The notes under the pieces: generated by a model
What the model was told of the DNA's origin: nothing
Databases searched by the model: none
What the model saw: the letters and a program-made list of their open reading frames with translations, nothing else
Shown: one piece after another, positions 3,342-62,096 of the stretch
Layout of the letters: each line of letters begins with the position of its first letter
Numbering within the stretch: position 1 is the stretch's first letter
Position numbers and translations under genes: made by a program
Assembly: GCA_963809425.1 (NCBI GenBank)
Contig: CAWEJK010000002.1
Location: 193,254-257,253, forward strand
DNA from: Thermoanaerobaculia bacterium
GTDB lineage: Bacteria > Acidobacteriota > Thermoanaerobaculia > UBA5066
Reading direction: 5' to 3'
Length of the DNA stretch: 64,000 nt

Positions 3342-5213
3342 TCAAGCGGGGGCTCCCTCGCCCCCGTGCGCCGCCGGGGGGAACGATCCGGATTCAGGAG
3401 CGTTCTCGGCCGTTTCGTCGTAGAGGCCTTCCAGCACGTCGCGGTAGCGCTGCTCGACGACGCGGCGGCGGACTTTCAGGCTCGGCGTCAGCTCGCCCGT
3501 CTCGATCTTCAGCTCCGCCGGCAGGATCGCCCAGCGGCGGATCGCCTCGTACCGCGCGAGGTGCGCGTTCACGTGCTCGACGTGCCGGCGGATGAGCTCG
3601 ACGACCCTCGCGTCGCGCACGAGGTCCGCGTAGGACGCGTCGCGAATACCCTCGGCGCGGGCCCACGCGAGAAGCTCCTCTTCGGAGAGGCTGATGAGCG
3701 CGGTGCAGAAGCGCCGCCCCTCGCCGTGCAGGAGAGCCTGGGCGATGACGGGCGTCTCGAGCTTCAGCTTTCCTTCGACGTGCTGCGGCGCGACGAACTT
3801 TCCTCCCGAGGTCTTGATGAGGTCCTTCTTCCGGTCGGTGATCGTGAGGTGGCCCGCGGCGTCACGGGCTCCGATGTCGCCCGTGTGGAGCCAGCCGTCC
3901 GCGTCGAGGGCGCGCGCCGTTTCGTCGGGGAGCCCGTAGTACCCGCGCATCACCCCGCGGCCGCGGAGGAGGATCTCGCCGTCTTTCGCGAACGAGACCT
4001 CGATGCCGGGAATCGGGAGCCCGACGGTGCCCCAGCGGTTCCGGTCCGGGAGGTTGGAGACGGTCATCGCCGTCGATTCCGAGAGGCCGTAACCCTCGAG
4101 AACCGTGAGGCCGAACGCGGCGAAGAACTCGGTGAGCTCCTTCGCGAGGGCGACGCTGCCGCAGATGAAGAACCGGAGGCGCCCGCCGAAACGCCGGCGG
4201 ATCTTCCCGAAGACGAGGGCGTCGGCGAGGCGCCGCCGCGCTTCGAGAAGAGCCCCGACGGTCCGGCCTTCGTTCCGGCGCCGCGCGACCTCGGTGCCGA
4301 TGCCGAGCGCCCACCGGAAGATCGCGGCCTTCGCCTTGCCGCCCGCGAGCACCTGCTCGAGGATCTTGGCGTGCACCTTCTCGAAGATGCGCGGGACGAC
4401 GCAGACGAACGTGGGCTTCACCGCCGCGAGGTTCGCCGCGATGCGGTCGGGGCGGCCGTCGACCGCCGTGGGAAAGCCGAAGCCGATCCCGAGGGTCACG
4501 CACACCTTGCCGAAGACGTGCGCGAGAGGGAGCCAGAGAAACTGCAGGTCGGAAGGCCCCAGGAGGCCCAGCGAGCCGATCGACTCGATCTCGAACAGCC
4601 AGCAGTCGTGCGGCAGCTCGACGCCTTTCGGACGGCCCGTCGTCCCGGACGTGTAGATGAGCGTCGCGAGGTCGGACGGCCCGGCGGCCCCCGCGGCGGC
4701 CTCGTATCCGCCGGGATGCTCCGCGTCCCACGCGCGGCCGAGAGCCGCGAGGTCGAGAAGGGACATCGCGTCTCCCGGAAGGCCCGCCGACGCGTCGAAG
4801 AGAACGAGATGGTCGAGGCAGGGGAGCGCGTCCCGGCGACTCACGATCCGCCGAGCCTGGGCCGCGTCCTCGGCGAAGACGATTTCGGCCCGCGAGTCGG
4901 TCAGGATGAAGGAGGTGTCCTCCTCGGTCGAGACGGGGTAGACGGTCGCGGTGACGCCGCCCGCGCAGGCGACCGCGAGATCCGCGAGGATCCACTCGAG
5001 GCGCGTGCCCGACACGATGGCCACGCGGTCGCCCGGCGAGAGTCCGAGGGACAGGAGCCCGCAGGCCAGGTCGCGGACGCGCGAAGCGGTCTCGCGCCAC
5101 GACAGGCTCTTCCACAACCCGTCCTCGGGGTGGAGAAACGCGGGCGCGTCCGGCGTGGCGGTCACGCGGGCGAAGAAGAGATCCGGGATCGAACGGTACG
5201 GGGGCGGCCTCAC
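3342..5213 (-). CDS. AMP-dependent long-chain acyl-CoA synthetase/ligase
   Basis: 623 aa. AMP-binding signature LIYTSGTTGRPKGVELPH and GWLHTGDIG. GTG start overlaps the stop of the upstream glycosyltransferase (GTGA). Confidence 0.88.
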   Translation of the reverse strand: MRPPPYRSIPDLFFARVTATPDAPAFLHPEDGLWKSLSWRETASRVRDLACGLLSLGLSPGDRVAIVSGTRLEWILADLAVACAGGVTATVYPVSTEEDTSFILTDSRAEIVFAEDAAQARRIVSRRDALPCLDHLVLFDASAGLPGDAMSLLDLAALGRAWDAEHPGGYEAAAGAAGPSDLATLIYTSGTTGRPKGVELPHDCWLFEIESIGSLGLLGPSDLQFLWLPLAHVFGKVCVTLGIGFGFPTAVDGRPDRIAANLAAVKPTFVCVVPRIFEKVHAKILEQVLAGGKAKAAIFRWALGIGTEVARRRNEGRTVGALLEARRRLADALVFGKIRRRFGGRLRFFICGSVALAKELTEFFAAFGLTVLEGYGLSESTAMTVSNLPDRNRWGTVGLPIPGIEVSFAKDGEILLRGRGVMRGYYGLPDETARALDADGWLHTGDIGARDAAGHLTITDRKKDLIKTSGGKFVAPQHVEGKLKLETPVIAQALLHGEGRRFCTALISLSEEELLAWARAEGIRDASYADLVRDARVVELIRRHVEHVNAHLARYEAIRRWAILPAELKIETGELTPSLKVRRRVVEQRYRDVLEGLYDETAENAPESGSFPPAAHGGEGAPA

Positions 5214-6409
5214 GACAGACCTTCCGATCCAGCGTCCGCACCCTGCGGCCGGCCCGGCAGCGGCTGCGCGCGGCGGAGATGCAACGCTTCGTCGAACGCG
5301 GCAAGCGTGCCGCGCGCGGTCTCATCCCAGGTAAAGCGCGCGGCCTGCCGGAGGCCGGCGGCGCGCATCCTCGCTCGCATGCCGTCGTCGGCGAGGACAC
5401 GCGCGATGGCGGCCGCGGCATCGTCCTCATCGTGCGGATCGAACCAGGCGGCCGCATCGCCCGCCACCTCGGGTAACGACGAGGCGCGCGCGCAGATCAC
5501 CGGACAGCCGAGCCGCATCGCTTCGAGCACCGGGAGGCCGAAACCTTCGTACGTCGACGGCATCACGAAGGCCGTCGCCTTGCGATAGAGCACGGCGAGA
5601 TCACGGTCGCTCACGAAGCCGAGCGTGAGCATCCAGGGGGCGCTCGCGTGCCGGGACCTGAAACGACGGCGTGGACCGGCCAGGACGAGGCTCGCCCGGG
5701 GATTCGCGGCGACGACGCGCTGCATGGCGCGGGTGAGGAGCGCGTGGTTCTTGCGCCGATCCGCAGCGCCGACCGCCAGCACGAAGGGCTCGCGCACGCC
5801 GAGGCGCTCGAGCGTCGAAGCGTCATCGCCGACCGGCGGCACCACGAAATCATCCGCGGCCTGCGGCACGATTCGAACGCGGTCGCGCGGAAAGCCGAGC
5901 AGGCGCCGTATTTCGTCCGCCGTGAACGACGAGACGGCGATGATGAGCGTCGCCCGGCGCGCGGTGACCGTGTAACGGCGCCGCAGGAGGAAGTTCTTCC
6001 AAGCCCTGCTCCAACGCGGATCCGGCAGCGCGAGGGGCGCGACGTCGTGCATCGTCACCACCACGGCGCCCTGCGGCGGCACGGGGCCCGTCACGTTCCA
6101 CGGATACCAGAACACGTCGGCGGACGACTTCCGCAGCTCGCGCGCGTGGAGCACCTCCGTGCGTCCGCGGAGCGCCGGGTCGGACGCCACCGCGGCCGCG
6201 AGCCGCTCGACGTCGCGCCGGTTCTTCGTGAACACGGCGAGGCGAAGCTCGGGGCGCAAGGCCACGAGCCGCGGCAGGATCGCGCGCACATAGCGTCCAA
6301 CCCCGCGCACGTCGCGCAGGAGGCGCGTGCCCTCGACGGCCACGGAATATGCCTCCACCACGCAAAAGTTAGATCCTCGGCACCGAACCGGGCAAGGTGT
6401 AAGACGCAT
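5210..6409 (-). CDS. Glycosyltransferase family 1 (GT4-type)
   Basis: C-terminal part of listed ORF 5210..7753. Contains FVMPSTYEGFGLPVLEAMRLGCPVI (EX7E region). Start uncertain: ATG 6409 or GTG near 6358-6361. The upstream part of the long ORF is antisense to the PLP gene and Arg/Asp-rich. Confidence 0.8.
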   Translation of the reverse strand: MRLTPCPVRCRGSNFCVVEAYSVAVEGTRLLRDVRGVGRYVRAILPRLVALRPELRLAVFTKNRRDVERLAAAVASDPALRGRTEVLHARELRKSSADVFWYPWNVTGPVPPQGAVVVTMHDVAPLALPDPRWSRAWKNFLLRRRYTVTARRATLIIAVSSFTADEIRRLLGFPRDRVRIVPQAADDFVVPPVGDDASTLERLGVREPFVLAVGAADRRKNHALLTRAMQRVVAANPRASLVLAGPRRRFRSRHASAPWMLTLGFVSDRDLAVLYRKATAFVMPSTYEGFGLPVLEAMRLGCPVICARASSLPEVAGDAAAWFDPHDEDDAAAAIARVLADDGMRARMRAAGLRQAARFTWDETARGTLAAFDEALHLRRAQPLPGRPQGADAGSEGLS

Positions 6410-6448: not shown

Positions 6449-7777
6449 ATGAGCACATCCTCGCCCTCCCTCGTCCTGCACGGCGCCGCGCGCTTCTCGT
6501 TCTGGGACTGGTGGGTCGACCGCAAGACCCGCTGGGTGCGCGACGAGGTCCGCCAGCTGGACGAGGGAGTGTTCCGGGCGCTCGCGGCGGGCACGGGCCT
6601 CCCGCCCATCCACCAGCGCTCGATGTTCCCCTTTCACAACGTCAAGGACGGGGCCGACCGCTTCCTCGGGATGTCCAAGGGCGGCGAGCGGCCCTACGCG
6701 CGCATCTACACGCGCCTCGGCAACCCCACCTCCGAGTACCTCGAGCGCGTCCTCTTCCGCCTCGAAGCGCAGCACGTCATCGAGAAGGCGCTCGCCGTCG
6801 ACGAGAAGGAACCGACGATCGGCTGCCTCATCTTCGGCTCGGGCATGGGCGCGATCTCGACTCTCCTCCTTTCGCTGTTGAAGGCCGGCGACGCCGTCCT
6901 CGCGGGCAACATCTACGGCTGCACGGACAGCCTGCTCCGAAACATGTCGAAGTACGGCGTCGGGGCCGTCTTCTGCGACACGGGCGACACCGGCGACGTC
7001 GCGCGCCGCCTCGAGGAGCACGCGAACGTCGCGGCCGTCTTCCTCGAGTCGCCCGAGAACCCCACGCTCCGCCTCTGCGACATCGAGGCGATCTCGCGCC
7101 TCACCGAGGCGCGCGGGATTCCCCTGATCGTCGACAACACGTTCTGCTCGCCGTACCTCCAGCAGCCGTTCCGGCTCGGCGCGGACTTCATCGTCCATTC
7201 CCTCACGAAGTTCATCAACGGCCACTCGACGTCCGTCGGCGGCGCGCTCCTCGGGCCGTTCCGCTTCCTCAAGAACGACCTCTTCCCGTGGTACAAGGAC
7301 CTCGGCGCGACGCCGTCGCCCTTCGACTCGTGGCTGAACTCGATGACGATCCAGTCCCTCGCCGTCCGCCAGAAGGCCCAGAGCGAGAGCGCCGCGACGA
7401 TCGCGGCTTTCCTGCGCGGTCACCCGAACGTCGCGCGCGTGACGTACCCGGGTTTCCACGATTTCCCGCAGAAGGACATCGTGAAAAAGCAGATGCGCGA
7501 CGGCGGCTCCCTCATCTCGTTCGAAGTGAAGGGTGGCGCCGCCGCCGGCGAGAAGCTCATGAACTACCTGGCCCGCAAGGACGTCCCGATGGAGCTCGCC
7601 GTCAGCCTCGGGGGGGCGATCACCTACGTCGAGCAGCCGGCCTCGATGACGCATGCCGTCGTCCCCGAGGCCGATCGCCTGGCCCGTGGTATCACGCCCG
7701 GCCTCATCCGGATGAGCGTGGGGCTGGAGGGGCCCGAGATCCTGATGGAGCACCTCGACCGAGGCCTGGACCTCTGA
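6449..7777 (+). CDS. Cys/Met-metabolism PLP-dependent enzyme (methionine gamma-lyase / cystathionine gamma-synthase / O-acylhomoserine sulfhydrylase family)
   Basis: YTRLGNPT and the PLP-lysine motif HSLTKFINGHS. Start taken at the second ATG (MSTSSPS); ATG 6413 is also possible. Confidence 0.82.
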   Translation: MSTSSPSLVLHGAARFSFWDWWVDRKTRWVRDEVRQLDEGVFRALAAGTGLPPIHQRSMFPFHNVKDGADRFLGMSKGGERPYARIYTRLGNPTSEYLERVLFRLEAQHVIEKALAVDEKEPTIGCLIFGSGMGAISTLLLSLLKAGDAVLAGNIYGCTDSLLRNMSKYGVGAVFCDTGDTGDVARRLEEHANVAAVFLESPENPTLRLCDIEAISRLTEARGIPLIVDNTFCSPYLQQPFRLGADFIVHSLTKFINGHSTSVGGALLGPFRFLKNDLFPWYKDLGATPSPFDSWLNSMTIQSLAVRQKAQSESAATIAAFLRGHPNVARVTYPGFHDFPQKDIVKKQMRDGGSLISFEVKGGAAAGEKLMNYLARKDVPMELAVSLGGAITYVEQPASMTHAVVPEADRLARGITPGLIRMSVGLEGPEILMEHLDRGLDL

Positions 7778-13038: not shown

Positions 13039-14006
13039 GCGAGAGCGGCGCGTCCGCGTCCGGGTTCGATGCCGAAGACGTCGGCGTCCAGCTCGCGCGC
13101 GCCGGCGAGGTCGCCGACAGGCGCGAGGTCGGCCTCTGGCTCGTCGGAGGCGCCCTGCGCGACCTCCTCCTCGGGCGGCCGCTGCGTGACGTGGATCTGG
13201 CCGTCGAGGCGGCAGCGGCGAACGCGCTGGAGCTCGCGGCACGCCTCGGCGCCCTGCCCGGATGGGCGCTCGAAAAGACGCACGTTCGTTTCGGAACCGC
13301 GACCCTCCGGGCGCCGGGCGGACTTCGCGTGGACGTCGCGTCGACCAGGCGGGAGGAATATCCGGCGGCGGCCAGCTTGCCGGTCGTGACCGGCACGACG
13401 ACGATCGAGGAGGATCTCGGCCGCCGGGACTTCACGATTCATGCGATGGCGCGGCGGGTCGCACGCCGGGGCCTCGTCGGGCGCGTGCTCGATCCCTTCG
13501 GAGGACGCGAGGACCTCGCGGCGAAGAAGCTCCGCCTCCTCCATGCGAAATCCCTCGTCGACGACCCGACGCGCGCGTACCGCGCGGTGACGTACGCGGC
13601 ACGGCTCGGGTTCGCGTGGGACGAGGAGTTCCACAAAGCTCTGAAGGCGGCTCGGCGCGCACGAGCATTTCAGGCGCTTTCGGGGGACCGAATGAGGAGG
13701 GGAATAGAAGAGATTTTCTTAGAAAGTGAATGGGAGCGGGCGGTCCGCCTCGCGAGTGACCTCTCGTTGTTTGGCGACACCCTTCCGGGCTGGACGGGCC
13801 CCCTCTTACCTTCTAAGAAAATTCCGGCTGAGTTGATGGCTTCGGCACTCGTCGACGCATCACGTACCGTGGATGTGCGGCTGAAACCGGAAGAAATCTG
13901 GCGTCGGCTGCTCGAGCCGCTGCCGCCGCCCGAGCGCGCCGCCGTCGCGTCACGATTGAACTTCCCGAAGGCCCTGAGGCGTGCCGCGGAGGTGGAACCT
14001 CGATGA
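13035..14006 (+). CDS. tRNA nucleotidyltransferase / poly(A) polymerase family protein (CCA-adding-enzyme-like)
   Basis: GTG 13035 overlaps the dnaE stop. Contains LVGGALRDLLLGRPLRDVDLAV and RRDFTIHAM head-domain motifs. Carries an in-frame copy of the repeat element. Confidence 0.8.
   Translation: MSESGASASGFDAEDVGVQLARAGEVADRREVGLWLVGGALRDLLLGRPLRDVDLAVEAAAANALELAARLGALPGWALEKTHVRFGTATLRAPGGLRVDVASTRREEYPAAASLPVVTGTTTIEEDLGRRDFTIHAMARRVARRGLVGRVLDPFGGREDLAAKKLRLLHAKSLVDDPTRAYRAVTYAARLGFAWDEEFHKALKAARRARAFQALSGDRMRRGIEEIFLESEWERAVRLASDLSLFGDTLPGWTGPLLPSKKIPAELMASALVDASRTVDVRLKPEEIWRRLLEPLPPPERAAVASRLNFPKALRRAAEVEPR
13712..13824. repeat. Low-GC inverted-repeat element copy, in frame inside the CCA-like CDS
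   Basis: F arm GATTTTCTTAGAAAGTGAATGGG (13712-13734) and R arm CCCTCTTACCTTCTAAGAAAATTC (13801-13824). Near-identical to the arms at 16579 and 19220. Confidence 0.75.
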
Positions 14007-14760: not shown

Positions 14761-15330
14761 GTGTTGCGCGTCACGGGCGGCGCGTGGCGCGGACGGAAGC
14801 TCGAGGTTCCCGAGGGCATCCGCCCGACGACCGAGCTCGCACGCAAGGCGGCGTTCGACATTCTCGGACCGGCGATCAGGGGCGCGCGCGTGCTCGACGC
14901 GTGCGCGGGCTCGGGAGCGTACGGTCTCGAAGCGCTCTCGCGAGGCGCGGCGCACGCAACATTCGTCGAGTCTGACCGGCAGGTTGTGAGAATCTTGAGG
15001 GGGAATGTGGAACGTCTCGGTGCGGGGGAGCGGGCTCTCGTCGAAGAGACGTTCGTGGCCCGTTTTTCTTCGATGGGTGAAGAGAGCGGGAGGCCCGCGC
15101 CGGCGTCGAGGCGTCCCTCGTTCGACGTGGTGTTCCACGATCCCCCTTTCAAGGAAATCTCCGAACCCGACCTTCAGCTTCTCTTGCCTCTCGTGCGAGC
15201 CGGGGGCTGGTTGATCCACGAGCGAGGAGACGACGAGGTCCATCGGCCGATGGGGCTGGCGCCCGCCGACCGCCGCCGCTACGGCAGGACCCGCTTCCTC
15301 ATCTTCCGCCCCGGATTTTCCGCCCCGTGA
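14761..15330 (+). CDS. rsmD: 16S rRNA (guanine966-N2)-methyltransferase
   Basis: [51 protein letters not shown] and [10 protein letters not shown] motifs. Confidence 0.88.
15062..15162. repeat. Element-like arm pair inside rsmD
   Basis: F arm GTTTTTCTTCGATGGGTGAAGAGAGCGGG (compare 44861 ATTTTCTTCGAATGGTGAAGAGAGATCGGG). R arm CCCCCTTTCAAGGAAATCTCC (compare 16664). Confidence 0.5.
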
Positions 15331-15391: not shown

Positions 15392-16558
15392 ATGGGCAAG
15401 TACCGCAGTCTCTTCACGTCCGAATCCGTCACCGAGGGCCATCCGGACAAGATCGCCGACCAGATCTCGGACGCGATCCTCGACGCGATCCTGAAAGACG
15501 ATCCGATGGGGCGTGTCGCGTGCGAGACGCTCGTCACGACGGGGCTCGCGCTCATCGCGGGCGAGATCACGACGAAGACGTACGTGGACATCCCGGGCAT
15601 CGTGCGGGAGACGATCAAGGACGTCGGGTATACGCGCGCGAAGTACGGCTTCGACTACGAGACGTGCGCCGTCATCTCGACGATCGACAAGCAGTCGCCG
15701 GACATCGCGCTGGGCGTCGATACGGGAGGGGCGGGCGACCAGGGCCTCATGTTCGGGCTCGCCGTGCGGGAGACCGAGGAGCTCATGCCGCTTCCGATCA
15801 CGCTCGCGCACAAGCTGACGATGCGCCTCGCCGAGGCCCGAAAGTCGAAGTCGCTCGAGTGGCTGCGTCCCGACGGCAAGAGCCAGGTCACGGTCGAATA
15901 CGAGGGCGACCGCCCGGTGCGTGTCGAAGCCGTCGTGATCTCGACGCAGCACGCGGAGTCGGTCCCGACCCCCGAGCTGCGTGAGGCGATCCGCGAGGAA
16001 ATCATCCGCCCGGTGGTTCCGGCGGCCCTCCTCGACGACAGGACGAAGTTCCACATCAACCCGACCGGCCGTTTCGTCACGGGCGGTCCCCAGGGCGACA
16101 CGGGTCTCACGGGCCGGAAGATCATCGTCGACACGTACGGCGGCTACGGGCGGCACGGCGGCGGCGCCTTCTCGGGCAAGGACGCGACGAAAGTGGACCG
16201 GTCGGCTTCGTACATGGCGCGTTACATCGCGAAGAACATCGTGGCCGCCGGCCTCGCCGACAAAGTCGAGGTCCAGCTCGCCTACGCGATCGGGGTAGCG
16301 GACCCCGTGTCCGTGTACGTGGACGCCTTCGGAACGTCGAAAGTCGACGTCGAGACGCTTTCGAAGCTCGTCCGCGAGCACTTCGCGCTCACGCCGCGGG
16401 GGATCATCGAGGCTCTCGACCTGAGGCGACCGATCTTCCGCAAGACGGCGGCCTACGGACACTTCGGACGCAACCTCCCCGAGTTCACGTGGGAGCGCAC
16501 CGACAAGGCCCCGGCGCTCGCGGCGGCGTTCGGGGCGACGGTGCCCGCGACCGCCTGA
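15392..16558 (+). CDS. metK: S-adenosylmethionine synthase
   Basis: [34 protein letters not shown] and GGGAFSGKD motifs. ATG 15392 has GGAG 10 nt upstream; the listed TTG 15377 is less likely. Confidence 0.96.
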
Positions 16559-16750
16559 AGAAAAAGGATTCGGATTAGGATTTCTTAGAAGGTGAATAGG
16601 GCTGGGGTCACGCCTCCGCCCGAAGCACCGCCGGCCCGGAGTGCGACGGCGCCTTGGATCTTTACCCTTTCTAAGAAATCTCCTTTCCCTCTTCCTCTTC
16701 CTCTTCCTTTCCTCTTTCTCTTCTTCCTCTTCTCTGTCTTCTGTTTTCCA
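16559..16750. repeat. Low-GC inverted-repeat element, canonical intergenic copy plus a 70-nt CT tract
   Basis: F arm GATTTCTTAGAAGGTGAATAGGG (16579-16601). GC-rich core. R arm CCCTTTCTAAGAAATC (16665-16680). Polypyrimidine run at 16681-16750. Confidence 0.85.
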
Positions 16751-16773
16751 TCTATCAATTCTGCGCGCAGTTA

Positions 16774-16801
16774 ATATCACTCTTACGTGATGTCATGATA
16801 T
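16774..16801. promoter_or_regulatory. Candidate operator for the ArsR-type regulator: ATATCAC-N6-GTGATGT and ATATCA...TGATAT inverted repeats
   Basis: ttaATATCACtcttacGTGATgtcaTGATATaaa sits directly upstream of the regulator start (GTG 16811). TATAAA lies 6 nt before the start codon. Confidence 0.4.
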
Positions 16802-16803
16802 AA

Positions 16804-19116
<2,313 letters not shown>

Positions 19117-19266
19117 GAGAACTACCGAGAGGAAGAGAAGAGGAAGATCTTCTTAGAAGGTAATAGGTCCGGGGAGCGCGGCCGTCGCATCGAGGCGCGG
19201 CCGCGACGCCTTGAACGGGCACCTTCTAAGAAATCTTTCTTCTCTTTTCTTTCTAAAGAAATCCCG
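19117..19266. repeat. Low-GC inverted-repeat element, canonical copy between convergent ahcY and lptFG
   Basis: GA-rich tract plus F arm GATCTTCTTAGAAGGTAATAGG (19146-19167). GC core. R arm CACCTTCTAAGAAATC (19220-19235) plus CT-rich tract. Extra half arm TTTCTAAAGAAATCC. Confidence 0.85.
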
Positions 19267-19275
19267 GTCCCTCTC

Positions 19276-21630: not shown

Positions 21631-21636
21631 CGTCCG

Positions 21637-21650
21637 ATAATATTTATTAT
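21637..21650. promoter_or_regulatory. AT-only palindrome ATAATA-TT-TATTAT in the lptFG upstream region
   Basis: 14-bp perfect inverted repeat. On the coding strand, TATTAT lies 6 nt upstream of the listed TTG start. Confidence 0.3.
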
Positions 21651-21713
21651 GTTAAATTCTAGAGACCAGTCGCCTGAAAACATAAGGTGGGAGTCAAGGG
21701 AGGGTCCGCCGGG

Positions 21714-21791
21714 GATTTCTTGGAAAGGAAGAAAGAAAGAGGAAAGACTCCCTCTTGATTCTCTTTCTTTCTAAGAGGTCTTCTTCTTCGC
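21714..21791. repeat. Short core-less variant of the inverted-repeat element, overlapping the parB stop
   Basis: GATTTCTTGGAAAGGAAGAAAGAAAGAGGAAAGA / TCTCTTTCTTTCTAAGAGGTCTTCTTC. The parB TAG stop (21771-21773) lies in the R arm. Confidence 0.6.
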
Positions 21792-24083: not shown

Positions 24084-24240
24084 TTTCTTAGAATGGTTTA
24101 TAGAAGATTTTCGCGGCCCGAAATGAGCTCGGGACTCGAGTCCGAGACACCCATCCGAACGACATTCGAAGAAATCCCCTCTTCGGTCTTCTCCTCGATC
24201 TTTTCTTCGGTCTTTTTCTCGGTCCTGCCCTGTCTTCTTC
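24084..24240. repeat. Low-GC inverted-repeat element copy forming the 3-prime end of the miaB ORF
   Basis: F arm TTTCTTAGAATGGTTTATAGAAG. Core has a perfect GGACTCGAGTCC palindrome. R arm CATTCGAAGAAATCCCC (24163-24179). CT-rich tract runs to about 24240. Confidence 0.75.
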
Positions 24241-25583: not shown

Positions 25584-25697
25584 GGAGAAAGAGAAGAATC
25601 GGGGGCGAGGCCGCGAGTCGCGCCGGAACGCCGCCCAGCGACGAGACGCGCAACACCTTCTAAGAAATCCTCGGCCTCATATCTTCTATCTTGGCTC
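25584..25697. repeat. Inverted-repeat element copy with degenerate left arm, between miaB start and upstream gene stop
   Basis: GGAGAAAGAGAAGAATCGGGGG ... GC core ... CACCTTCTAAGAAATCC (25654-25670) ... ATCTTCTATC. Confidence 0.6.
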
Positions 25698-34632: not shown

Positions 34633-36248
34633 TTTGGCGTCTTTACGGGCGTCGTCTCGCGCCGGAAGAACGCCTGGACCTTCTGCTCGGCCCGCATCGT
34701 CTTCGCGGCGTCGTCGAGCTCGAGCGTGCCGCAGCGCAGAACGTTCTCGTTCTGCCAGGCGCGCACCGAGCCCGCGAGGACGAGCCTCGACGTTCGGGTC
34801 AGAAGCTTCAAGGTGTCGGACTCGGAGAAAAAGGGGCTCTTCCCGTCACCGCCGAGAAAGCCGCCTCGGCCGGGCCCCGACCCTGGCGCGTACGAGGCCT
34901 TCACGGTCCCCGCGGCGTCGAGGCGCTCCTCCCGCGCGTTCCACGACAGCGATCGGGCCGTGATCGCGCCGCGCTCGTCGTGGTAGCGCGCGGGGACGTC
35001 GGACTCGCCCGAGAAGACGGCCGTGTCGTCCCGCCCGCGCAGCGTGCCGTGCGGAGCCTTCAGCGTGGCCCTCTTCCCGTCGGTCAGCTCGACACCGTTT
35101 TCGAACGTCGCCGTCTCGATCGAGCGGCCATCCGGCAGGAAGAGGACCCGGGCGAAGCCGGCGGTGAGCGTGCGCAGCCCCGAGCCGGCGGGTCCACCGG
35201 CCCGGCCGGATTCGGCGGCGTCGAGCCGATTGGCCACGGTGAGCTCGCGGAAACCCCCGTTTTCGAATCTCCCCGAGAAATGCGGCGCCCGCGCGCGGCG
35301 CGCGCCCGCGGTGCCCGACGTGATTGACGCTCCGGCGGGGCCGAGGTCGAGCCTCGCGAGACCCGGGGCGCCCCCGTCGGCTTCGAGACCGGCCGGTTGT
35401 CCGGACGCGTCGACCCGCATCTCGAGGGCGTCGCCCTGCGCCGTGAGCGCGGCCGGCGGCTGCCCCGATTCAGGAAGGACGAGGAGGAAGGCGCCCGTCG
35501 TCGCCCGGAGCCGGCTTCCGTCGGGCTCGGCGAGCCGGGAGACGCTTTCGCTCCGGAGGATGAAGCGGTCGGTCTTCAGGACGGCGCCGCCCGTCGCGTC
35601 GAGCCTTCCGTCGCGGGAGACGACGACCCGCGGCGCGGCCAGATCCACGGCGCGCCCGCCTTCGGCCCGCCCGCCGAGGTGCGCGTCGCCGTCGAGCACG
35701 AGATTTCCGTCCCTGACGCCGAGCTTCCCGGAGGCGGCGCGGGCCACGAGCGCGCCCCGAAGCGCCGTGACGGGTCCCTCAGACGCGAGCTCGCGGCGCG
35801 CGGGATCGTAGCGGAACGAGGCGGCCGAGAGGCTCGTCTCCTCGCCCTCGATCTTCACCCCGTCGAAGACGCGGAAGGCCCGCGAGCCCTCGATCATCTC
35901 GGCGCGCGGCGCTCGCACCGAGATCGCCCGTTCGCCGGCTCCCTCCCGCGACTCGAACACGACGTCCTTGAGTCGGAAGATCTTCTCCCCCTTTTCCTCG
36001 AACCTGACGGCTTCCGTGGCGCGAACGCGATACCGGCCCTCGGAAGCCCGCGTCTCGTCGTACTGAAAGTCACGGAAGCGCATCGTGTCGCGCTTCCCTC
36101 CGGATTCCTTCAGGAGCGTTTCGGCGACCGGATCGCGGACGCCCTCCGTCCGCGCTCCGGGCTTGCGGTAGGAGAGGACGACGAGGAGCGCGAAGCCGAC
36201 GACGAGGGCGAGGATCGCCGCCCGGATCATCCGCCGAAAGCGCGTCAT
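34515..36248 (-). CDS. Membrane-anchored LptC/OstA-like periplasmic protein (extended)
   Basis: ATG 36248 (ATGA overlap with the recJ stop). TM anchor [21 protein letters not shown]. Repeated beta-rich OstA-like segments. The final ~38 aa of the listed frame are Arg-rich junk after the A5 run. Confidence 0.65.
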
Positions 36249-38951: not shown

Positions 38952-39015
38952 GCGGAGACTGTAGCAGAGGCCTCCTCCCGTTGCTCGACGGCGGCGGCGT
39001 TTCGGGGCAAGCTTC

Positions 39016-39056
39016 GAAGAGGAAGAGAAAGAGATTCTTAGAATGGAAGAGATCGG
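39016..39056. repeat. Solo F arm of the inverted-repeat element, containing the methyltransferase start codon
   Basis: GAAGAGGAAGAGAAAGAGATTCTTAGAATGGAAGAGATCGG. Compare 24084 and 44861. Confidence 0.65.
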
Positions 39057-44240: not shown

Positions 44241-45070
44241 GGCTGCTTCCCCTTCCGCGCCGGCGCGTCGATCCCGAGCCGCGCGAGCACCGCGAGCAGA
44301 TCCTCCCACGCGTCCTTTTTCTGGGCGGGCTGGCGGAGGAGGTACGACGGGTGAAGAGTCGGCATCACGGGGATGCCTCGATAGCTCCCCCATTTGCCGC
44401 GGAGGCGCGTGATGCCCTCTTCGGTTTCCAGCAGGAAGTGCGCGGCGAATTTGCCGAGCGCGACGAGCACCTCCGGCTTCACGAGATCGATCTGCCTTTC
44501 GAGGTAGCCGCGGCAGGCGGCGATCTCGTCGGGCTCCGGATTCCGGTTCTCGGGCGGACGGCACTTCAGGACGTTCGCGATGTAGACGGACGAGCGCGGC
44601 AGCCCCATGCCGTCCTCGATCATCCGCGTGAGAAGCTGGCCGGCGCGCCCTACGAACGGGACGCCCTGCGCGTCCTCGTCGGCCCCCGGAGCCTCGCCGA
44701 TGAACATGATCCTGGCGCTGGACGAGCCGTCCGCGAACACCGTCTGCTTGCGGGTTTTGCACAGCCGGCATGTGACGCAGGAAGAGACTTCTTTTGCTAA
44801 AGACTGCAGCTCCAGGGCCGAAGCGCGTCGAGCGGAAGGCGAAGCGGCGGGAGACGGCGCATTTTCTTCGAATGGTGAAGAGAGATCGGGAAGCGCCGGC
44901 GCCGCAGGGGACGCGCCTGCGGGCTTGCCCGCCGCCCTATTAACCTTCAAAGAAATCTTCTCTTTCTCTTCGAACCTTGCATCAAGGTAAAGCTCCGCCA
45001 CGCCGAGGTCGCGATAGTAGGCGAGGGTTTCCCGAAGCGCGTCGGAGCCGGGGGGCCGCGCGGGGGTCAC
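44237..45070 (-). CDS. Uracil-DNA glycosylase, family 4, with N-terminal extension containing a repeat element
   Basis: CRLCKTRKQTVFADGS...IMFIGEAPGADEDAQGVPFVGRAGQLL...HPSYLLR. Confidence 0.88.
   Translation of the reverse strand: MTPARPPGSDALRETLAYYRDLGVAELYLDARFEEKEKISLKVNRAAGKPAGASPAAPALPDLSSPFEENAPSPAASPSARRASALELQSLAKEVSSCVTCRLCKTRKQTVFADGSSSARIMFIGEAPGADEDAQGVPFVGRAGQLLTRMIEDGMGLPRSSVYIANVLKCRPPENRNPEPDEIAACRGYLERQIDLVKPEVLVALGKFAAHFLLETEEGITRLRGKWGSYRGIPVMPTLHPSYLLRQPAQKKDAWEDLLAVLARLGIDAPARKGKQP
44861..44972. repeat. Low-GC inverted-repeat element copy, in frame inside the udg N-terminal region
   Basis: F arm ATTTTCTTCGAATGGTGAAGAGAGATCGGG (44861-44890). GC core. R arm CCCTATTAACCTTCAAAGAAATCTTCTCTTTCTCTTCG (44935-44972). 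Confidence 0.8.
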
Positions 45071-45965: not shown

Positions 45966-46842
45966 TCATTCGACGTTCTGGACCTGTTCCTTGAATGCTT
46001 CGAGATCGGATTTCAGGTCGAGGACGATCCGTGTGGCGCCCGTTTCCCGGACCTTGGATCCCGAGGTATTCACCTCGCGGTGAATCTCCTGCACGAGATG
46101 GTCGAGGCGGCGGCCGACGGGCCCACCAGCGGCGAGAAGGCGCCGCAGCTCGACGAGGTGCGTCTTGAGGCGGTCGATCTCTTCGGTGATGTCGGCGCGA
46201 TCGGCGAGGAGGGCGACCTCCTGGACGAGCCGGGCCTCGTCGAGCGCCACCCCCGCCGCCAGCTTCGCGATGCGCTCGCGAAGGGCGACGGCTATGCGCT
46301 CGGAGATGCCCGTCCGAGCCACGTCGAGCGACGCCACCCCTTTGTCGATTCGCTCCAGGATTTCTTTGAAGGTGAGAGAGAGAGCGGCCCCCTCGCGCGC
46401 CCGTGCGGCGTCGAAGTCCTGGAGCGCCTGTTCGACGAGCGAGACAAGAGACTCCTCGAATGTGGTATCGGGCGCGGCGCCGGCGTCGTCCGTCGCACGC
46501 ACGACCCCCGGCAGCGCGAGAAGGTCCCTTGCGGAGAGATCCGCCGGTAATCCCCTTTTCGAAGAATCCTCTCTCCATTCCCTCGCGTAATTTTCCGCCG
46601 CTTCCATGTCGATGCGGGCCGTTCCCGAGGCGCCCGCGGGCTCGCGTGGTCCGGATCAGGACGTCGACGTGCCCGCGCGCCACGACCTTCCCCACGGCCC
46701 GGCGGACGGCCGGCTCCGAGGCGGCGTATTCGTCGCGCAGCTTGATGGCCACGTCGAGGAATCGGTGGTTCACGCCGCGGATGACGACCGAGACGTCCGT
46801 CCCGTCGGGAAGTGTCGCCGCCGCGCGGCCGAATCCGGTCAT
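45966..46842 (-). CDS. YicC-family stress-induced protein, frame broken between 46610 and 46655
   Basis: N-terminus MTGFGRAAATLPDGTDVSVVIRGVNHRFLDVAIKL is in the frame of listed ORF 45952..48933. The C-terminal DUF1732 part (ITEEIDRLKTHL...EIHREVNTSGSK) is in listed ORF 45966..46607. Length 877 nt = 3n+1. Confidence 0.8.
46358..46582. repeat. Element-like F and R arms inside yicC (wide spacing)
   Basis: GGATTTCTTTGAAGGTGAGAGAGAGAGCGG (46358-46387) and CCCCTTTTCGAAGAATCCTCTCTCCATTCCC (46552-46582). Confidence 0.45.
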
Positions 46843-56890: not shown

Positions 56891-56928
56891 GGAGAAGAGG
56901 GGATTTCTTAGAAGGTGAAGAGAGGCGA
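56891..56928. repeat. Solo F arm of the inverted-repeat element, filling the trpS-scpA spacer
   Basis: GGAGAAGAGGGGATTTCTTAGAAGGTGAAGAGAGGCGA. Confidence 0.7.
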
Positions 56929-58628: not shown

Positions 58629-60800
58629 TCAGTCTCCGGCCGGAAGATCGGCGGCGCGGAGAAGGAGGGGCGTGCGGAAGGGAGCGTCCGCGTTCCCCGC
58701 GAGGAGCCGCGAGGCTTCGTCGCGGGCGCGCTTCATCCAGGCGACGTCGCGGACGAGATCGCCCACGCGGAAGAGCGGCACCCCGCTCTGGCGCGTGCCG
58801 AGCGCGTCGCCGGGGCCCCGGCGCTTGAGGTCTTCCTCGGCCACCACGAATCCGTCGTCCGTCTTCTCGAGAACGGCAAGCCGCTCGCGCGCTTCGGGCG
58901 ACGCCTTCGTGCCGAACAGAAGCACGCAGCGCGAGGTCCGTTTCCCGCGCCCGACGCGTCCCCTGAGCTGATGGAGCTGGGCGAGGCCGAAGCGCTCGGC
59001 ATTCTCGATCAGCATGTAGGAGGCGTTCGGCACGTCGACGCCGACCTCGATGACGGTCGTCGCCGCGAGGACGTCGAGCCTGCCGGCCGCGAACTCCGCC
59101 ATCGTCCGCTCGCGCTCCTCGGGGGGAATACGGCCATGCACGACGCCGACACGTCTTCCGGGCAGGGCCCGGCGGACCTCCTCCACGTGCTTTTCGACCG
59201 CGCGCGCCTCGATCTTGTCCGACTCCTCTATGAGGGGGACGACGACGTAAGCCTGGCCCCCGGCCCGGATCTCGGCCTCGATCTCCCGGAACGCGCCGCC
59301 ACGCTCGGCCTCGGGGAGCACGCGCGTCGCGACGGGCGTCCTCCCCGGCGGTTTTTCGTCGAGCGTCGAGACGTCGAGGTCCCCGTAGAGCGTGAGCGCA
59401 AGAGAGCGCGGAATCGGCGTCGCGGACATCACGAGGAGGTGCGGCTTCTGGCCGGCCGTGTCGGCCCCGTCGGCTCTCACGGCCTTCGCCGAGAGCGCCG
59501 TGCGCTGGGCGACCCCGAAGCGGTGCTGCTCGTCTATGACGATGAGCCCGAGCCGCAGGAACTCCACGGGCTCCTCCAGGAGCGCGTGCGTTCCGACCAG
59601 CAGGTTGACGCGGCCGCCCGCGAGCTGGTCGAGGAGCGCGGCGCGGGCCTTCCCTTTGACGCGGCCCGTGAGTAGCGCGGGCACGAGCCCGGACTTCGCG
59701 AGCAGGCGGAAGATCGTCGCCGCGTGCTGCTCGGCGAGGATCTCCGTCGGCGCCATGAGGGCGGTCTGGTACCCGCATGCGGCGGCAAGGACGGCCGAGA
59801 GCACCGCGACGATCGTCTTGCCGCTCCCGACGTCGCCCTGGAGGAGGCGCCGCATGGGCGTGCCGCGCCGGAAGTCCTCGCCGATCTCGCGGATCACCCG
59901 CTTCTGCGCTCCGGTCAGCGCGAACGGGAGGAGAGCCTTGAGCCGCGCGCGGATGGCGTCGTCGGCGGCGAGGAGAGGAGCTGGATCGGCGGCGCGCGCG
60001 CGGCGCCGCCGTTGAAGGCCGACCTGGAACTCGAGGAACTCCTCGTAAACGAGTCGATGGAGATGGGGCGAGGTCCGCGAAGTCCAGGGCTCCGCGTCGG
60101 CCGTGCCGCCCGCACTGCCCGGGAAATGCGCCTCTCGCAGGGATTCGGAAAGAGACGGCAGCTTCGGACCCTCGCCTTTCCGGTCGTGGATGCGTTCCGG
60201 GAGACGGTCTGCAAAGTTTCTTAGAAGGTGATTGACGACTCGCCTCCGCATCCGCGGTGTGAGTCCGGGAAGCTTGCGGTAGATCGGCACGACCCGGCCG
60301 ACGGAGAGGGGATCCGTTCCGTCGAGCGAGCCGGCGCCGCCGCCCGCCCCTCCTCCCTCTTTCTCTTCACCTTCCAAGAATTCTTCTATCTGCGGGTTCT
60401 CCATGACGAGCCCGCGCCGATAGCGCGCGGCCTGTGTCGCCATTCCGTAGACCCAGAAGATCTTCTTCGGGACCATCCACCGCTGGAGGTATGGCTGGTT
60501 GAAGAAGACGAGGCGGAGAGAGCCCGAGCCGTCGTCGAGGATCGCCTCGAAGATCGTGAAGCCGCGGCGCCGCGTGCGAATGAGGCGCGCGGACAGGACC
60601 TCCCCTTTCACGGTGGTCGCCGGCCCCTCGGGCACGAGAGCCGAGATCGGCGCGATGCGCGTGCGGTCCTCGTAGCGGAACGGGAGGTGGAGGAGGAGAT
60701 CGAGCGCCGTCTCGACTCCGGCCTCGGCCAGCTCCTTCGCGCGCGCGGGGCCGACGCCCGGCAGCGTGGCAAGCGACGGGAGCGGCGGCGGCGGGAGGAT
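58629..60800 (-). CDS. recG: ATP-dependent DNA helicase RecG (start codon unresolved)
   Basis: LQGDVGSGKT, VIDEQHRFG and QLHQLRGRVGRG motifs. The conserved N-terminus LPGVGPARAKELAEAGVETALDLLLHLPFRYEDRT is encoded in frame upstream of the listed GTG 60635, but with no ATG/GTG/TTG. ATC 60800 or CTG is a candidate start. Confidence 0.9.
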   Translation of the reverse strand: MLPPPPLPSLATLPGVGPARAKELAEAGVETALDLLLHLPFRYEDRTRIAPISALVPEGPATTVKGEVLSARLIRTRRRGFTIFEAILDDGSGSLRLVFFNQPYLQRWMVPKKIFWVYGMATQAARYRRGLVMENPQIEEFLEGEEKEGGGAGGGAGSLDGTDPLSVGRVVPIYRKLPGLTPRMRRRVVNHLLRNFADRLPERIHDRKGEGPKLPSLSESLREAHFPGSAGGTADAEPWTSRTSPHLHRLVYEEFLEFQVGLQRRRRARAADPAPLLAADDAIRARLKALLPFALTGAQKRVIREIGEDFRRGTPMRRLLQGDVGSGKTIVAVLSAVLAAACGYQTALMAPTEILAEQHAATIFRLLAKSGLVPALLTGRVKGKARAALLDQLAGGRVNLLVGTHALLEEPVEFLRLGLIVIDEQHRFGVAQRTALSAKAVRADGADTAGQKPHLLVMSATPIPRSLALTLYGDLDVSTLDEKPPGRTPVATRVLPEAERGGAFREIEAEIRAGGQAYVVVPLIEESDKIEARAVEKHVEEVRRALPGRRVGVVHGRIPPEERERTMAEFAAGRLDVLAATTVIEVGVDVPNASYMLIENAERFGLAQLHQLRGRVGRGKRTSRCVLLFGTKASPEARERLAVLEKTDDGFVVAEEDLKRRGPGDALGTRQSGVPLFRVGDLVRDVAWMKRARDEASRLLAGNADAPFRTPLLLRAADLPAGD
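60216..60390. repeat. Element-like F and R arms inside recG (wedge/linker region)
   Basis: GTTTCTTAGAAGGTGATTG (60216-60234) and CCCTCTTTCTCTTCACCTTCCAAGAATTCTTCTATC (60355-60390). Confidence 0.5.
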
Positions 60801-61689: not shown

Positions 61690-62096
61690 GTGACTCGGGC
61701 CGGACGATAAGCCGGATTCTGTAACCGGTCGGCTCGCGCCTTCCGGCCGGCGGTCATTCCTCCAGGCCCGGCCTTTCGGACGGGCTCGAGCGACCGACCC
61801 GGTGACGTCGGCCGTGAAGCCGCGAGGGCGGGCGCCCCTTCCATCACCCTATTTGGTCTTGCTCCGCGTGGGGTTTCGCCTGCCGGTCCCGTTGCCGGAA
61901 CCGCGGTGCGCTCTTACCGCACCTTTTCACCCTTACCTGCGCCTCGCGGCGCGTCGGCGGTATGTTTTCTGTGCCACTTTCCTTCGGGTTACCCCGACCG
62001 GAATTTCTCCGGCACGCTGCCCGCGGGAGTCCGGACTTTCCTCCCCTCCTTCCGCCGAAGCGTCGAGAGCGGCGACCGCCTGTCCGGCCCGAGTCG
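61690..62096 (-). ncRNA. rnpB: RNase P RNA, bacterial type A
   Basis: Reverse strand contains GGAGGGGAGGAAAGTCCGGAC, GGCACAGAAAACATACCGCC, GGTAAGGGTGAAAAGGTGCGGTAAGAGCGCACCGC and ACAGAATCCGGCTTATCG. P1 pairing is ACTCGGGCCGGAC with GTCCGGCCCGAGT. Ends are approximate to within +/-5 nt. Confidence 0.93.

Follow-up and report, generated by a model that had tools for sequence, protein, structure and literature searches.

Directly downstream of metK (stop codon at 16556–16558), this Thermoanaerobaculia DNA carries an A+T-rich inverted repeat around a GC-rich core, and the same arms return elsewhere in the window, by which we mean the whole 64,000-nt stretch analyzed. What kind of repeat is this, and would it act as DNA or as RNA? 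Thermoanaerobaculia are abundant and nearly all uncultured, and to our knowledge nothing has been described about their genome dynamics. A literature search returned nothing relevant on the motif or on Thermoanaerobaculia repeats. Among known bacterial repeats, the REP unit is an imperfect palindrome of 20–40 nt with its own stem-loop and a GTAG (or CGTC) end; REPs also occur as head-to-head dimers and inside genes, many of the latter copies in replication/repair genes, and TIR repeat families flanking tyrosine transposases (TIRtrons) have been described, Acidobacteria included (PMC3733652).

The element after metK and its copies in the window

The first-pass annotation had described 16559–16750 as a GA run, an F arm, a GC-rich core, an R arm and a CT tract of about 70 nt, and direct reading of the sequence returns the same layout:

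16559–16576, + strand: outer purine-rich/(GGATTN)3 hexamer tract (direct reading)
16577–16602, + strand: F arm, AGGATTTCTTAGAAGGTGAATAGGGC (nhmmer E = 1.3e-5; exact motif match)
16603–16660, unstranded: GC-rich core, an unconserved passenger with no similar core in the data set
16661–16682, − strand: R arm (nhmmer E = 0.005)
16683–16752, + strand: outer CT hexamer tract, G-free, ~70 nt (direct reading)

As also claimed, the arms hold stop codons, which a direct reading places in all three frames. Each arm contains an invariant, A+T-rich 11-mer, TTCTTAGAAGG, and measures ~18–26 nt with its flanks, in a host genome of 69% GC. With up to two mismatches, GATTTCTTAGAAGG is matched 12 times in the window against 0.08 expected, a number reached by 0 of 100 shuffles. 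Near-invariant positions are confined to the arm in a profile built from 319 arms, and the arm consensus, GATTTCTTAGAAGGTGAA, has as its sole palindrome a 9-bp one (TTCTnAGAA) that is unable to fold.

Copies were detected by motif, regex and HMM searches, a generic repeat finder run on the whole window having given mostly GC-rich chance matches; gene calls came from a model of codon usage that had been trained on genes verified by Pfam. A profile HMM (nhmmer) trained on 334 arms recovered pairs at 13710/13825, 16577/16682, 19143/19239, 21711/21779, 24084/24179, 44861/44960, 46357/46556 and 60212/60383, and solo arms at 25672(−), 39034(+) and 56900(+). This amounts to ~1 locus per 5 kb, close to the one per 5–6 kb estimated at first pass. 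Regular chromosomal spacing is rejected, given that the HMM places no arm between 26 and 39 kb. Every recurring pair listed earlier was recovered except 15062/15142, where the match is very weak; this stretch lies in rsmD, whose Pfam profile covers the gene end to end, and the syntenic locus L085 has good arms at the matching place. It is probably a decayed copy of a real element. The earlier solo arms at 25654, 39016 and 56891 were likewise recovered, and the one at 35966–36004 is unsupported, having no HMM match. Arm separation, put at usually 80–120 nt, measures 50–95 nt start to start in tight pairs and 152–196 nt in loose ones. The other copies in the window are:

13710–13736, + strand: F arm inside a cca-like gene (tRNA nucleotidyltransferase/poly(A) polymerase family), encoding E-I-F-L-E-S-E-W and conserved in four species (nhmmer E = 4.7e-5)
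13799–13825, − strand: R arm inside the same gene, encoding L-L-P-S-K-K-I, its 11-mer invariant in four species (nhmmer E = 3.4e-5)
15062–15161, unstranded: probable decayed pair inside rsmD (Cons_hypoth95 methyltransferase; weak HMM, E = 0.6 and 3.3)
19117–19275, unstranded: complete element (GA tract, arms, core, CT tract) filling the spacer of convergent ahcY and lptF/G; F arm 19143–19167, R arm 19220–19239 (nhmmer)
21711–21779, unstranded: short degenerate element, with the parB stop TAG (21771–21773, minus strand) within the R arm
24084–24235, unstranded: element overlapping the 3' end of a MiaB-like gene; F arm 24084–24095, R arm 24165–24179, the R-arm TAG changed to TCG and the following CT tract translated as a C-terminal tail
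25654–25672, − strand: R arm whose partner has decayed; the MiaB-like gene starts on one side of it and the next gene ends on the other
39013–39046, + strand: solo arm with a GA tract; the ATG (39043) of a Trm112p/methyltransferase gene lies inside the arm
44861–44960, unstranded: pair upstream of a UDG-family gene; F arm 44861–44882, R arm 44934–44960
46357–46570, unstranded: loose pair inside yicC; arm 46357–46380 encodes L-T-F-K-E-I-L-E on the gene (minus) strand, within the YicC sequence
56900–56925, + strand: solo arm in the 42-nt spacer from the stop of a class I aaRS (Trp/Tyr family) to the start of scpA (E = 1.9e-5)
60212–60383, unstranded: pair inside recG; arm 60212–60234 encodes N-H-L-L-R-N-F (gene strand) at its native position, and arm 60363–60383 encodes E-F-L-E-G-E-E and adjoins a 13-residue insert

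Distribution and turnover

The paired pattern occurs in at least 114 stretches of DNA, at least 108 of them from ~27 high-GC Thermoanaerobaculia/Acidobacteriota genomes. The arms are strongly enriched outside the window, on which the claim of a family depended, and the family spans the class Thermoanaerobaculia, not one genome; copy number per genome is probably in the hundreds. Outside the Acidobacteria the scan matched four loci of Bacteroidota, one of Cloacimonadales and a viral contig, all A+T-rich and free of GA/CT tracts; these either belong to a separate family or matched by chance. A plasmid collection gave no match. Rfam at gathering score returned only RNase P and nothing for the element, and at E up to 1 across 13.5–26 kb it gave no meaningful matches; the family is unnamed, as had been supposed.

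After removal of self-matches, 152 pairs face inward and 6 truly outward. Start-to-start spacing of the inward-facing arms has its mode at 75–80 nt, within a distance range fixed by the scan pattern, and whole elements measure ~100–200 nt, which agrees with the MITE/REP-like layout of a dispersed inverted-repeat family recognized at first pass. A (GGATTC)n tract flanks ~50 arms in other genomes, and both the outer GA/CT tracts and the (GGATTC)n hexamer tracts differ in length among orthologues.

The element after metK had been presented as the defining copy. The whole element (16559–16752) is missing from the orthologous sites of L075 and L085, and L028 shows just an R arm and a CT tract there; it is a gain specific to the lineage, lacking in two related species, and not a founding copy. 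At the 25.6-kb site L106 carries no element, and in L041 the element is doubled. Copying between loci is visible in a 33-nt unit, CACCTTCTAAGAAACTTTGCAGACCGTCTCCCG, that is identical between recG of the window and elements in spacers of L002 and L053, with close variants of this arm-plus-flank unit in L019 and L084, and in two near-identical leader elements ahead of unrelated genes in L059. Arm units spread by two routes, insertion into spacers and short-patch replacement within genes, and once established they are kept constant.

At the metK insertion boundary, no target-site duplication is seen against the empty L075 and L085 sites (one clean boundary). TTCTTAAGAA-type empty sites have 0 occurrences, which rejects the idea that the arms are half of a target site plus a TA duplication. 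The autonomous partner envisaged at first pass did not turn up either: in 0.94 Mb of sampled loci no transposase lies inside an F...R pair with arms 0.5–4 kb apart, the sole case at that distance enclosing a MiaB-like gene, and no RAYT/TIRYT partner or arm-flanked partner protein was seen. No full-length consensus common to the copies was found.

Cores and spacers

The DNA between the arms is a passenger, for which any GC-rich spacer, even native coding sequence, will serve. Cores range from 8 to ~200 nt and are unalignable; 100 of 171 have no match to any other core, and the matches that exist, overlapping calls at one site aside, are nearly all between different genomes, many of those checked being orthologous sites. 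Conserved arms with unalignable cores had been noted before, and no core in the window matches another. Four species keep the arms at the ahcY–lptFG site, around cores of ~8, 45, 55 or 95 nt.

Non-coding DNA makes up 13% of the sampled DNA and holds 60% of the arms. The median spacer without arms is 12–14 nt (divergent: 102 nt) and the median with arms 140–400 nt; since spacers without elements are only ~12 bases in the sampled regions, the elements constitute most of the intergenic DNA there, and gene callers and regulatory models for Thermoanaerobaculia must handle them. Co-directional spacers carry arms in 15% of cases, convergent ones in 27% and divergent ones in 23%, and the occurrence in all three alike indicates that the elements are not dedicated terminators or promoters. 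A promoter reading is also rejected because the arms face inward, are found after convergent genes and lie too near some start codons.

Arms inside genes

Genes with internal copies are the cca-like gene, yicC, recG and rsmD in the window, and hisA also carries arms. In-gene arms use every open frame, encoding FLEGE, FLRR and ISLKV one way and HLLRK, PSKK and TFKE the other. In the cca-like gene, third codon positions are invariant at 10/11 sites in the arms versus 72/220 outside (p = 1.7e-4), and in hisA at 8/10 versus 35/130 (p = 1.3e-3), with third-position identity among the compared species only 0.60–0.80. These frozen third positions indicate that the arms are constrained at the nucleotide level.

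The arms also occupy native protein positions. The cca-like F arm aligns without gaps to LEKILEEKN of PDB chain 3h37 (the alignment covers the F arm only), the hisA arms lie at native positions compared with PDB 4wd0, and so does the recG R arm compared with PDB 9wm0 and 1gm5. Relative to solved homologues, indels at hisA, the cca-like F arm and the recG R arm amount to 0–2 residues, the F side of recG being the sole case with a 13-residue insert.

The arm pair as a proposed recognition unit

Three features are odd for bacterial repeats: an 11-mer identical across the class, a freely replaceable interior, and native coding sequence that is overwritten without change of length and whose synonymous sites are then fixed. 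Together they point towards a conserved factor that acts in trans and towards a mechanism of copying. Our leading, though tentative, reading is that the family is a dispersed REP/TIR-like element whose arm pair would provide the predicted recognition sites for a trans-acting factor, most likely on DNA. The functional unit would be a pair of inward-facing arms with a modal spacing of ~75 bp, and the two arms would jointly act as sequence-specific sites for a conserved factor, most plausibly a DNA-binding transposase-/recombinase-like protein of the RAYT/TIRYT kind. The predicted target of this putative protein is DNA, not a folded transcript. Slippage would lengthen and shorten the outer tracts, and purifying selection or concerted copying would keep the arms constant. 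We know of no transposase action that overwrites coding sequence without a change in length, which counts against a transposase-like protein.

The family is unlike an ordinary MITE, REP or structured RNA. With REP/REPIN and TIR–TIRYT systems it shares short conserved units mostly in inverted pairs with a less conserved spacer, hundreds of copies mainly in spacers near gene ends, the head-to-head dimer arrangement, and some in-gene copies that include replication/repair genes (recG here). REP sequences normally vary between related species, whereas here the 11-mer is class-wide and not species-specific. The arms are A+T-rich, with neither a self-folding GC-rich palindrome nor a GTAG/CGTC tag; the spacer is ~60 nt and unrelated among copies; copies inside genes take the place of native sequence and do not add 20–30 residues; and no RAYT or TIRYT partner accompanies them in the sampled loci.

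Rickettsia palindromic elements (RPE) resemble the family in being palindromic repeats that occur in spacers and in-frame in housekeeping genes and are retained at orthologous sites of related species. RPE copies, however, have a consensus over their full length and introduce an additional peptide segment, whereas here the arms alone are shared and the segment enclosed in hisA and the cca-like gene is native protein sequence. Correia elements (Neisseria) and ERIC/IRU (enterobacteria) are likewise intergenic, ~100–150 bp, bounded by terminal inverted repeats and conserved across relatives, and are able to supply promoters, processing sites or terminators; they differ in their conserved interior and TA target duplications, neither of which is seen here, where no empty target site was found. 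As in MITEs, terminal inverted repeats bound a unit of 50–500 bp, but with no target-site duplication at the one clean boundary and no full-length consensus. Integron attC sites also have conserved imperfect inverted ends around a center variable in length and sequence, and, were the site to fold, the one-base inequalities between arms would produce extrahelical bases; the family differs in having no RYYYAAC/GTTRRRY consensus, cassette array or nearby integrase, and it is flanked by housekeeping genes of mixed orientation.

Other readings

A more doubtful possibility is that the arm pair is a cis-element of a class-wide host system, with the inverted sites co-bound by a putative conserved protein that may serve self-DNA recognition, chromosome organization or recombination. 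The sites would then be actively written into the chromosome, housekeeping genes included, by short-patch replacement. The constancy of the 11-mer across ~27 species-level genomes fits such a host-level function, or drive, better than it fits a selfish transposon. If true, the family would be a paired, longer-range analogue of uptake sequences/HIP1 with its own copying mechanism.

It is unlikely that the element works at the RNA level, with F and R forming an invariant stem of 11–14 bp that GA:CU pairing lengthens and that encloses a variable loop. A putative sequence-specific RNase or RNA-binding protein would recognize this stem and set mRNA processing, stability or translation, for example with the Shine-Dalgarno-like AGAAGGUGA of the F arm sequestered. 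The F-then-R order holds on both strands, so that any transcript reads 5'-F...R-3' with the same stem, and the opposite arrangement is almost absent. In L029, L059, L065 and L098, the F arm is the ribosome-binding site and the R arm follows ~20 codons on. Many REPs function as RNA elements (PMC3733652).

Folding gives a divided answer. The arms pair in the minimum-free-energy folds of 4 of 7 window copies, and three copies are more stable than shuffles (z = -6.4 for the ahcY–lptF/G element, -2.4 for the whole element after metK, and -2.2), but the other four are not. The first-pass expectation of hairpins more stable than shuffled sequence therefore holds for three copies only. The label 'hairpin element' did not survive: core folds average z = -0.53 versus -0.30 in control DNA, and the F and R arms show no covariation. 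An invariant stem would by construction lack it, but at the single polymorphic arm position A-C mismatches are no rarer than G-U pairs (16 versus 11 pairs), and the arms are preferentially heterotypic (T3 with T4, G2 with G3), often unequal by one base. Unstructured cores and the lack of an Rfam match also set the family apart from structured RNA families. Divergent spacers are as rich in elements as convergent ones, and co-directional spacers show no orientation bias relative to transcription: a GGG/GGT asymmetry of 26 versus 9 overall falls to 9 versus 10 in co-directional spacers and is limited to in-gene copies, where we attribute it to stop-codon avoidance.

Quite unlikely is a genome-signature motif kept by molecular drive or host function, like DNA uptake sequences (USS/DUS) or cyanobacterial HIP1. 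A putative self-DNA machine (uptake receptor, repair or nucleoid protein) would prefer DNA carrying the motif pair, and point mutation and recombination would let the motif build up at any place that the protein sequence permits. This fits a short motif that is identical class-wide and in excess on both strands, that is embedded in native coding sequence in every frame, where its synonymous sites are frozen, and that is found as inverted pairs just past genes, with transposase, target-site duplication and shared core all not found; USS and DUS likewise lie within genes and form inverted pairs downstream of them. However, uptake sequences act as single motifs, whereas the unit here is an oriented pair even in genes (40 in-gene arms paired versus 28 solo), with spacing that peaks at ~75 nt in a distance range set by the scan pattern. 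The 33-nt arm-plus-flank units at unrelated loci indicate copying, not point mutation, hexamer tracts flank the motif, and the whole 190-nt element after metK appears as one insertion. We know of no competence in Thermoanaerobaculia, nor of any link of the family to competence or methylation.

A bidirectional termination module is very unlikely. In such a module three-frame stops would release ribosomes, and a hairpin would be followed by a G-free CT tract serving as a rut site or weak U-tract. The symmetric layout, in which transcription from both directions meets GA tract, arms and CT tract in turn, would suit it, as would the G-free tract after metK, the many arms that start 5–60 nt past stop codons, the 13 genes that end within an arm and the top rank of convergent spacers among the three types. 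But divergent spacers are populated equally, arms are directed at gene starts and gene ends with similar frequency (109 versus 115), ~27% of arms lie mid-gene, the cores are not hairpins, and many copies have no CT tract. Termination needs no invariant 11-mer, and the GC-rich hairpin plus U-tract at transcription-unit 3' ends expected of intrinsic terminators was not found.

An ordinary fossil MITE family of old non-autonomous insertions, with diverged cores and no present function, is just as improbable and already disfavored by the ahcY–lptFG cores, the hisA placement and the third-position data: its terminal-inverted-repeat layout of ~100–200 nt, presence/absence differences at orthologous sites and dominance of intergenic DNA in otherwise compact genomes would fit, but conservation of the arms far exceeds that of neutral sites in the same alignments, core length varies ~tenfold at one orthologous site with arms intact, arms lie in native coding sequence of unchanged length, and consensus, target-site duplication and parent insertion sequence were all not found.

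Gene parts supplied by the elements

The elements illustrate how repeats become a source of gene parts. Exapted roles include stop codons of upstream genes, a Shine-Dalgarno sequence with a start codon, and signal peptides, the R arm plus CT tract encoding signal-peptide-like leaders of several periplasmic proteins. A small-ORF or signal-peptide cassette is rejected as a general role, given that the stop-codon frame is not depleted upstream of genes (25 stop, 19 PSK, 14 LLR), and by eye arm spacing has no clear 3-nt periodicity; signal-peptide use is an occasional exaptation. The side on which the (GGATTC)n tract lies relative to transcription shows a weak trend (14 versus 5).

Results

The first-pass annotation described, from sequence alone, a dispersed low-GC inverted-repeat hairpin of MITE or REP appearance, in which a short conserved A+T-rich forward (F) arm faces its reverse complement (R) across a core. 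The repeat is real: in the window, which is bacterial DNA of 69% GC, GATTTCTTAGAAGG occurs 12 times at ≤2 mismatches against 0.08 expected, a number reached by 0 of 100 shuffled windows, and a profile HMM trained on 334 arms taken from other genomes recovers the pairs. The layout proposed for the copy 3' of metK (the metK element) is borne out by direct reading.

Arms and neighbouring features in the window
directly 3' of the metK stop (16556-16558): short purine run with three GGATTN hexamers
16577-16602: F arm of the metK element, AGGATTTCTTAGAAGGTGAATAGGGC
between the arms: GC-rich core, 58 nt
16661-16682: R arm, reverse complement of the F arm
about 70 nt, to ~16752: G-free CT tract
3' of the CT tract, 5' of 16811: A+T-rich promoter-like stretch
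16811: GTG start of an ArsR-methyltransferase fusion gene
13710/13825, 16577/16682, 19143/19239, 21711/21779, 24084/24179, 44861/44960, 46357/46556, 60212/60383: arm pairs found by the HMM
25672 (minus), 39034 (plus), 56900 (plus): solo arms found by the HMM

A solo arm annotated at 35966-36004 was not recovered by the HMM. At 15062/15142 the annotated pair scores marginally in the window itself; the corresponding stretch of L085, a syntenic locus of another genome, has good arms.

The arms extend class-wide. Scanning one genome for each of 185,579 species with TTCTTAGAARG-N55-85-CYTTCTAAGAA gave the paired pattern in at least 114 stretches; among the matches listed, 108 have 65-73% GC and come from ~27 genomes labelled Thermoanaerobaculia or Acidobacteriota and one probably mis-binned genome, which establishes enrichment beyond the window. 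On one 3.67-Mb contig the loci are distributed over its entire length. A+T-rich matches (Bacteroidota, Cloacimonadales and one viral contig) are without the flanking tracts and were set aside as a different family or chance. The repeat had no match in Rfam, whether at the gathering cutoff or with E relaxed to 1, nor in the plasmid collection or the searchable literature.

Arm anatomy was drawn from 319-349 arms. An 11-mer, TTCTTAGAAGG, is nearly invariant and includes the 9-bp palindrome TTCTnAGAA. Outward of it lie ~20 purine-rich nt, often a run of GAAGAG-like hexamers and in ~15% of arms (~50 arms in other loci) (GGATTC)n; inward follows GTGAAGAGGG or GTGA(A/G)TGGGG. Pairs face inward in 152 cases and truly outward in 6. 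The commonest spacings are 75 and 79-80 nt, with extremes of 24 and ~200 nt, the scan pattern having confined most of the sample to 66-96 nt. Partners preferentially differ by one base (a T-run of 3 with one of 4, or GG with GGG), and homotypic pairs of the commonest arm type are depleted. The (GGATTC)n arrays reach 5 or more hexamers beside one arm of many elements (in the window, 16566-16583), usually opposite an arm with a GAAGAG-type tract, and tend weakly towards the upstream side in co-directional spacers (14 vs 5).

The hairpin part of the description fared less well. Whole elements fold better than shuffles in three of seven window copies (z = -6.4, -2.4 and -2.2), the other four lying between -0.3 and +1.1, and the cores are no more stably folded than control DNA from close by (159 pairs; mean z -0.53 vs -0.30). 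F and R arms of a pair are no more alike than shuffled partners at any variable position, and at the only polymorphic position inside the arm, where the direction of transcription is known, 16 pairs would form an A-C mismatch and 11 a G-U pair. Fold scores, lack of F/R covariation and A-C mismatches all speak against a structured RNA or hairpin-core element.

Orthologous sites come from loci syntenic with the window, of which there are seven; in the six measured, third-codon identity to it is only 0.60-0.80. The spacer 3' of metK measures 34-44 nt in L075 and L085 and holds no element there, and L028 retains R arm and CT tract alone; the 25.6-kb site has no element in L106 and two in L041. Arms have therefore been gained and lost. 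Retained arms are conserved far beyond their surroundings: the ahcY/lptFG element has intact arms in all four species compared, around a core of ~8, 45, 55 or 95 nt in which likeness is confined to the ends. Two cases point to copying; otherwise, cores from the same genome are unrelated. Recurring at several places is a 33-nt unit, CACCTTCTAAGAAACTTTGCAGACCGTCTCCCG, present in recG of the window and also in intergenic elements of L002 and L053 downstream of unrelated genes, with close variants in L019 and L084; and L059 has two near-identical leader elements, before an S9/TolB-like protein and before an amidohydrolase. The search for an autonomous partner came back empty, no pair 0.5-4 kb apart enclosing a transposase in 0.94 Mb of sampled loci. 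The metK element boundary has no target-site duplication, and no empty TTCTTAAGAA-type sites were found.

The window's Pfam-assigned genes served to train a codon-usage model, with which genes were called in every locus.

Pfam-assigned genes of the window
DnaE, cca-like nucleotidyltransferase, RsmD, MetK, ArsR-methyltransferase, AhcY, LptF/G
ParB, ParA, BFN nuclease, MiaB-like enzyme, PtsI, Trm112-methyltransferase, UDG
guanylate kinase, YicC, ABC transporter, ScpA, class I aaRS, RecG

Coding sequence makes up 87% of the DNA in all loci, yet the non-coding 13% holds 60% of arms; ~27% lie mid-gene. Arm-free spacers have a median of 12-14 nt (102 nt if divergent) and arm-bearing spacers medians of 140-400 nt, so that elements constitute the bulk of intergenic sequence. 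Among convergent spacers 27% carry arms, among divergent ones 23% and among co-directional ones 15%; arms point towards a gene end in 115 cases and towards a gene start in 109. This distribution over spacers and genes rules out a dedicated promoter and disfavours a terminator role, and element location is indifferent to transcription.

Within genes, arms are superimposed on native protein sequence. The F arm in the cca-like gene encodes EEIFLESEW, gapless against LEKILEEKN of a Thermotoga enzyme (PDB 3h37). In hisA of five species, VEDFLEG aligns to LERALE- and THLLRKEGG to TRKAID--R, with the conserved GxARxxxG motif between these arm-encoded segments; in recG, NHLLRNFAD aligns without gaps to DQALDLLDT of the E. 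coli protein and the other arm adjoins a 13-residue insert. The yicC arm (46357-46380) encodes LTFKEILE on the gene's strand, which we take to be native sequence, presumably matching E. coli YicC. In-gene arms occupy every open frame, and constraint therefore acts on nucleotides. In the cca-like gene, 10/11 third codon positions within arms are invariant, compared with 72/220 outside them (p = 1.7e-4), and in hisA 8/10 compared with 35/130 (p = 1.3e-3); the arm codons TTA, AGA, CTA, AAA and ATT are rare, genome third positions being ~90% GC. In hisA of L013, L027, L062, L094 and L100, a CT hexamer tract of 0-45 nt has expanded within the coding region directly 3' of the R arm and adds a Ser/Leu/Phe-rich loop of species-dependent length.

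Some arms have been taken into gene boundaries. An arm contains the stop codon of 13 genes across the data set; parB likewise stops within an arm, and a methyltransferase gene has its ATG (39043) in another.

Elements as 5' leaders
L029, ~7300-7450, minus
L059, two sites
L065
L098
L012, ~3668-3850
L022, ~5000-5250

The F arm supplies the Shine-Dalgarno GGAGG and an ATG start in L029, L059 (twice), L065 and L098, where core, R arm (H-L-L-R-K) and CT tract encode a signal-peptide-like leader with an AxA-type end; the R arm gives its charged part, the CT tract reads as a Leu/Phe/Ser-rich hydrophobic run, and PD40 or amidohydrolase domains come next. In L022 a ZnuA domain begins at residue 63, directly behind such a leader. 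The leader-bearing periplasmic proteins are PD40/S9-like, amidohydrolase, ZnuA and X-Pro peptidase-like. As a general role, leader supply was rejected, the stop-codon frame not being depleted among arms upstream of genes (25/19/14).

Discussion

The repeat system is real, undescribed and spread through the lineage; it belongs to the REP/MITE kind, and the way it evolves is unusual. The constrained unit is the arm pair, not the interior, and what is constrained is its sequence as such rather than the ability of the arms to pair. Arm units are copied into new sites, by insertion as well as by replacement. In the simplest model, a conserved trans-acting factor would act on DNA and recognise the arms as paired sites. 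One rival is a stem at the RNA level that a sequence-specific protein would recognise, for which the three well-folding window copies could be cited and against which the A-C mismatches weigh; another is an uptake-sequence-like drive. A purely fossil MITE is disfavoured.

Closest in kind to these paired sites are head-to-head REP dimers and the TIR families linked with tyrosine transposases; among these, intragenic copies in repair genes, and TIRtrons in Acidobacteria, are on record (PMC3733652). We assign the repeat to no named family because the defining features fail: the arm unit is not self-folding, arms are without a GTAG/CGTC tag, copies have no common core, the metK boundary has no target duplication and the sampled loci have no visible partner gene. 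Known mechanisms do not explain a class-wide identical 11-mer, free core replacement, or coding sequence overwritten at constant length.

Other observations

A methyl-cycle cluster (15392-19116) comprises metK, an ArsR-family HTH fused to a SAM methyltransferase (16811-17776) and ahcY. A conserved palindromic stretch accompanies the fusion gene, and a TATAA box stops ~8 nt 5' of its GTG, which suggests a leaderless transcript. The sole Rfam match in the window is a bacterial class A RNase P RNA (61692-62091, minus; 266.9 bits).

Beside parAB, with the start of lptF/G on one side and the stop of parB on the other, ACGTCCGATAATATTTATTATGTTAAAT (21636-21663) looks like a chromosomal dif (XerC/D) site; its XerD arm, TTATGTTAAAT, is presumably identical to that of E. 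coli dif. This candidate is kept in L028 and L106. At 1-kb resolution no GC-skew switch is visible; a position at the terminus would fit with syntenic L085, which lies 1.72 Mb into a contig of 3.67 Mb.

Bacteroidota of 38-40% GC carry a different conserved hairpin-like repeat, GGTTCTTAGAAAGTTATTGCGG ... (~70 nt) ... TATAACTTTCTAAGAA, at L001, L024 and L091 (Cytophagales MAG) and L087 (Saprospiraceae MAG), with three copies in one MAG. It shares the core TTCTTAGAA with the arm family, by chance or convergence.
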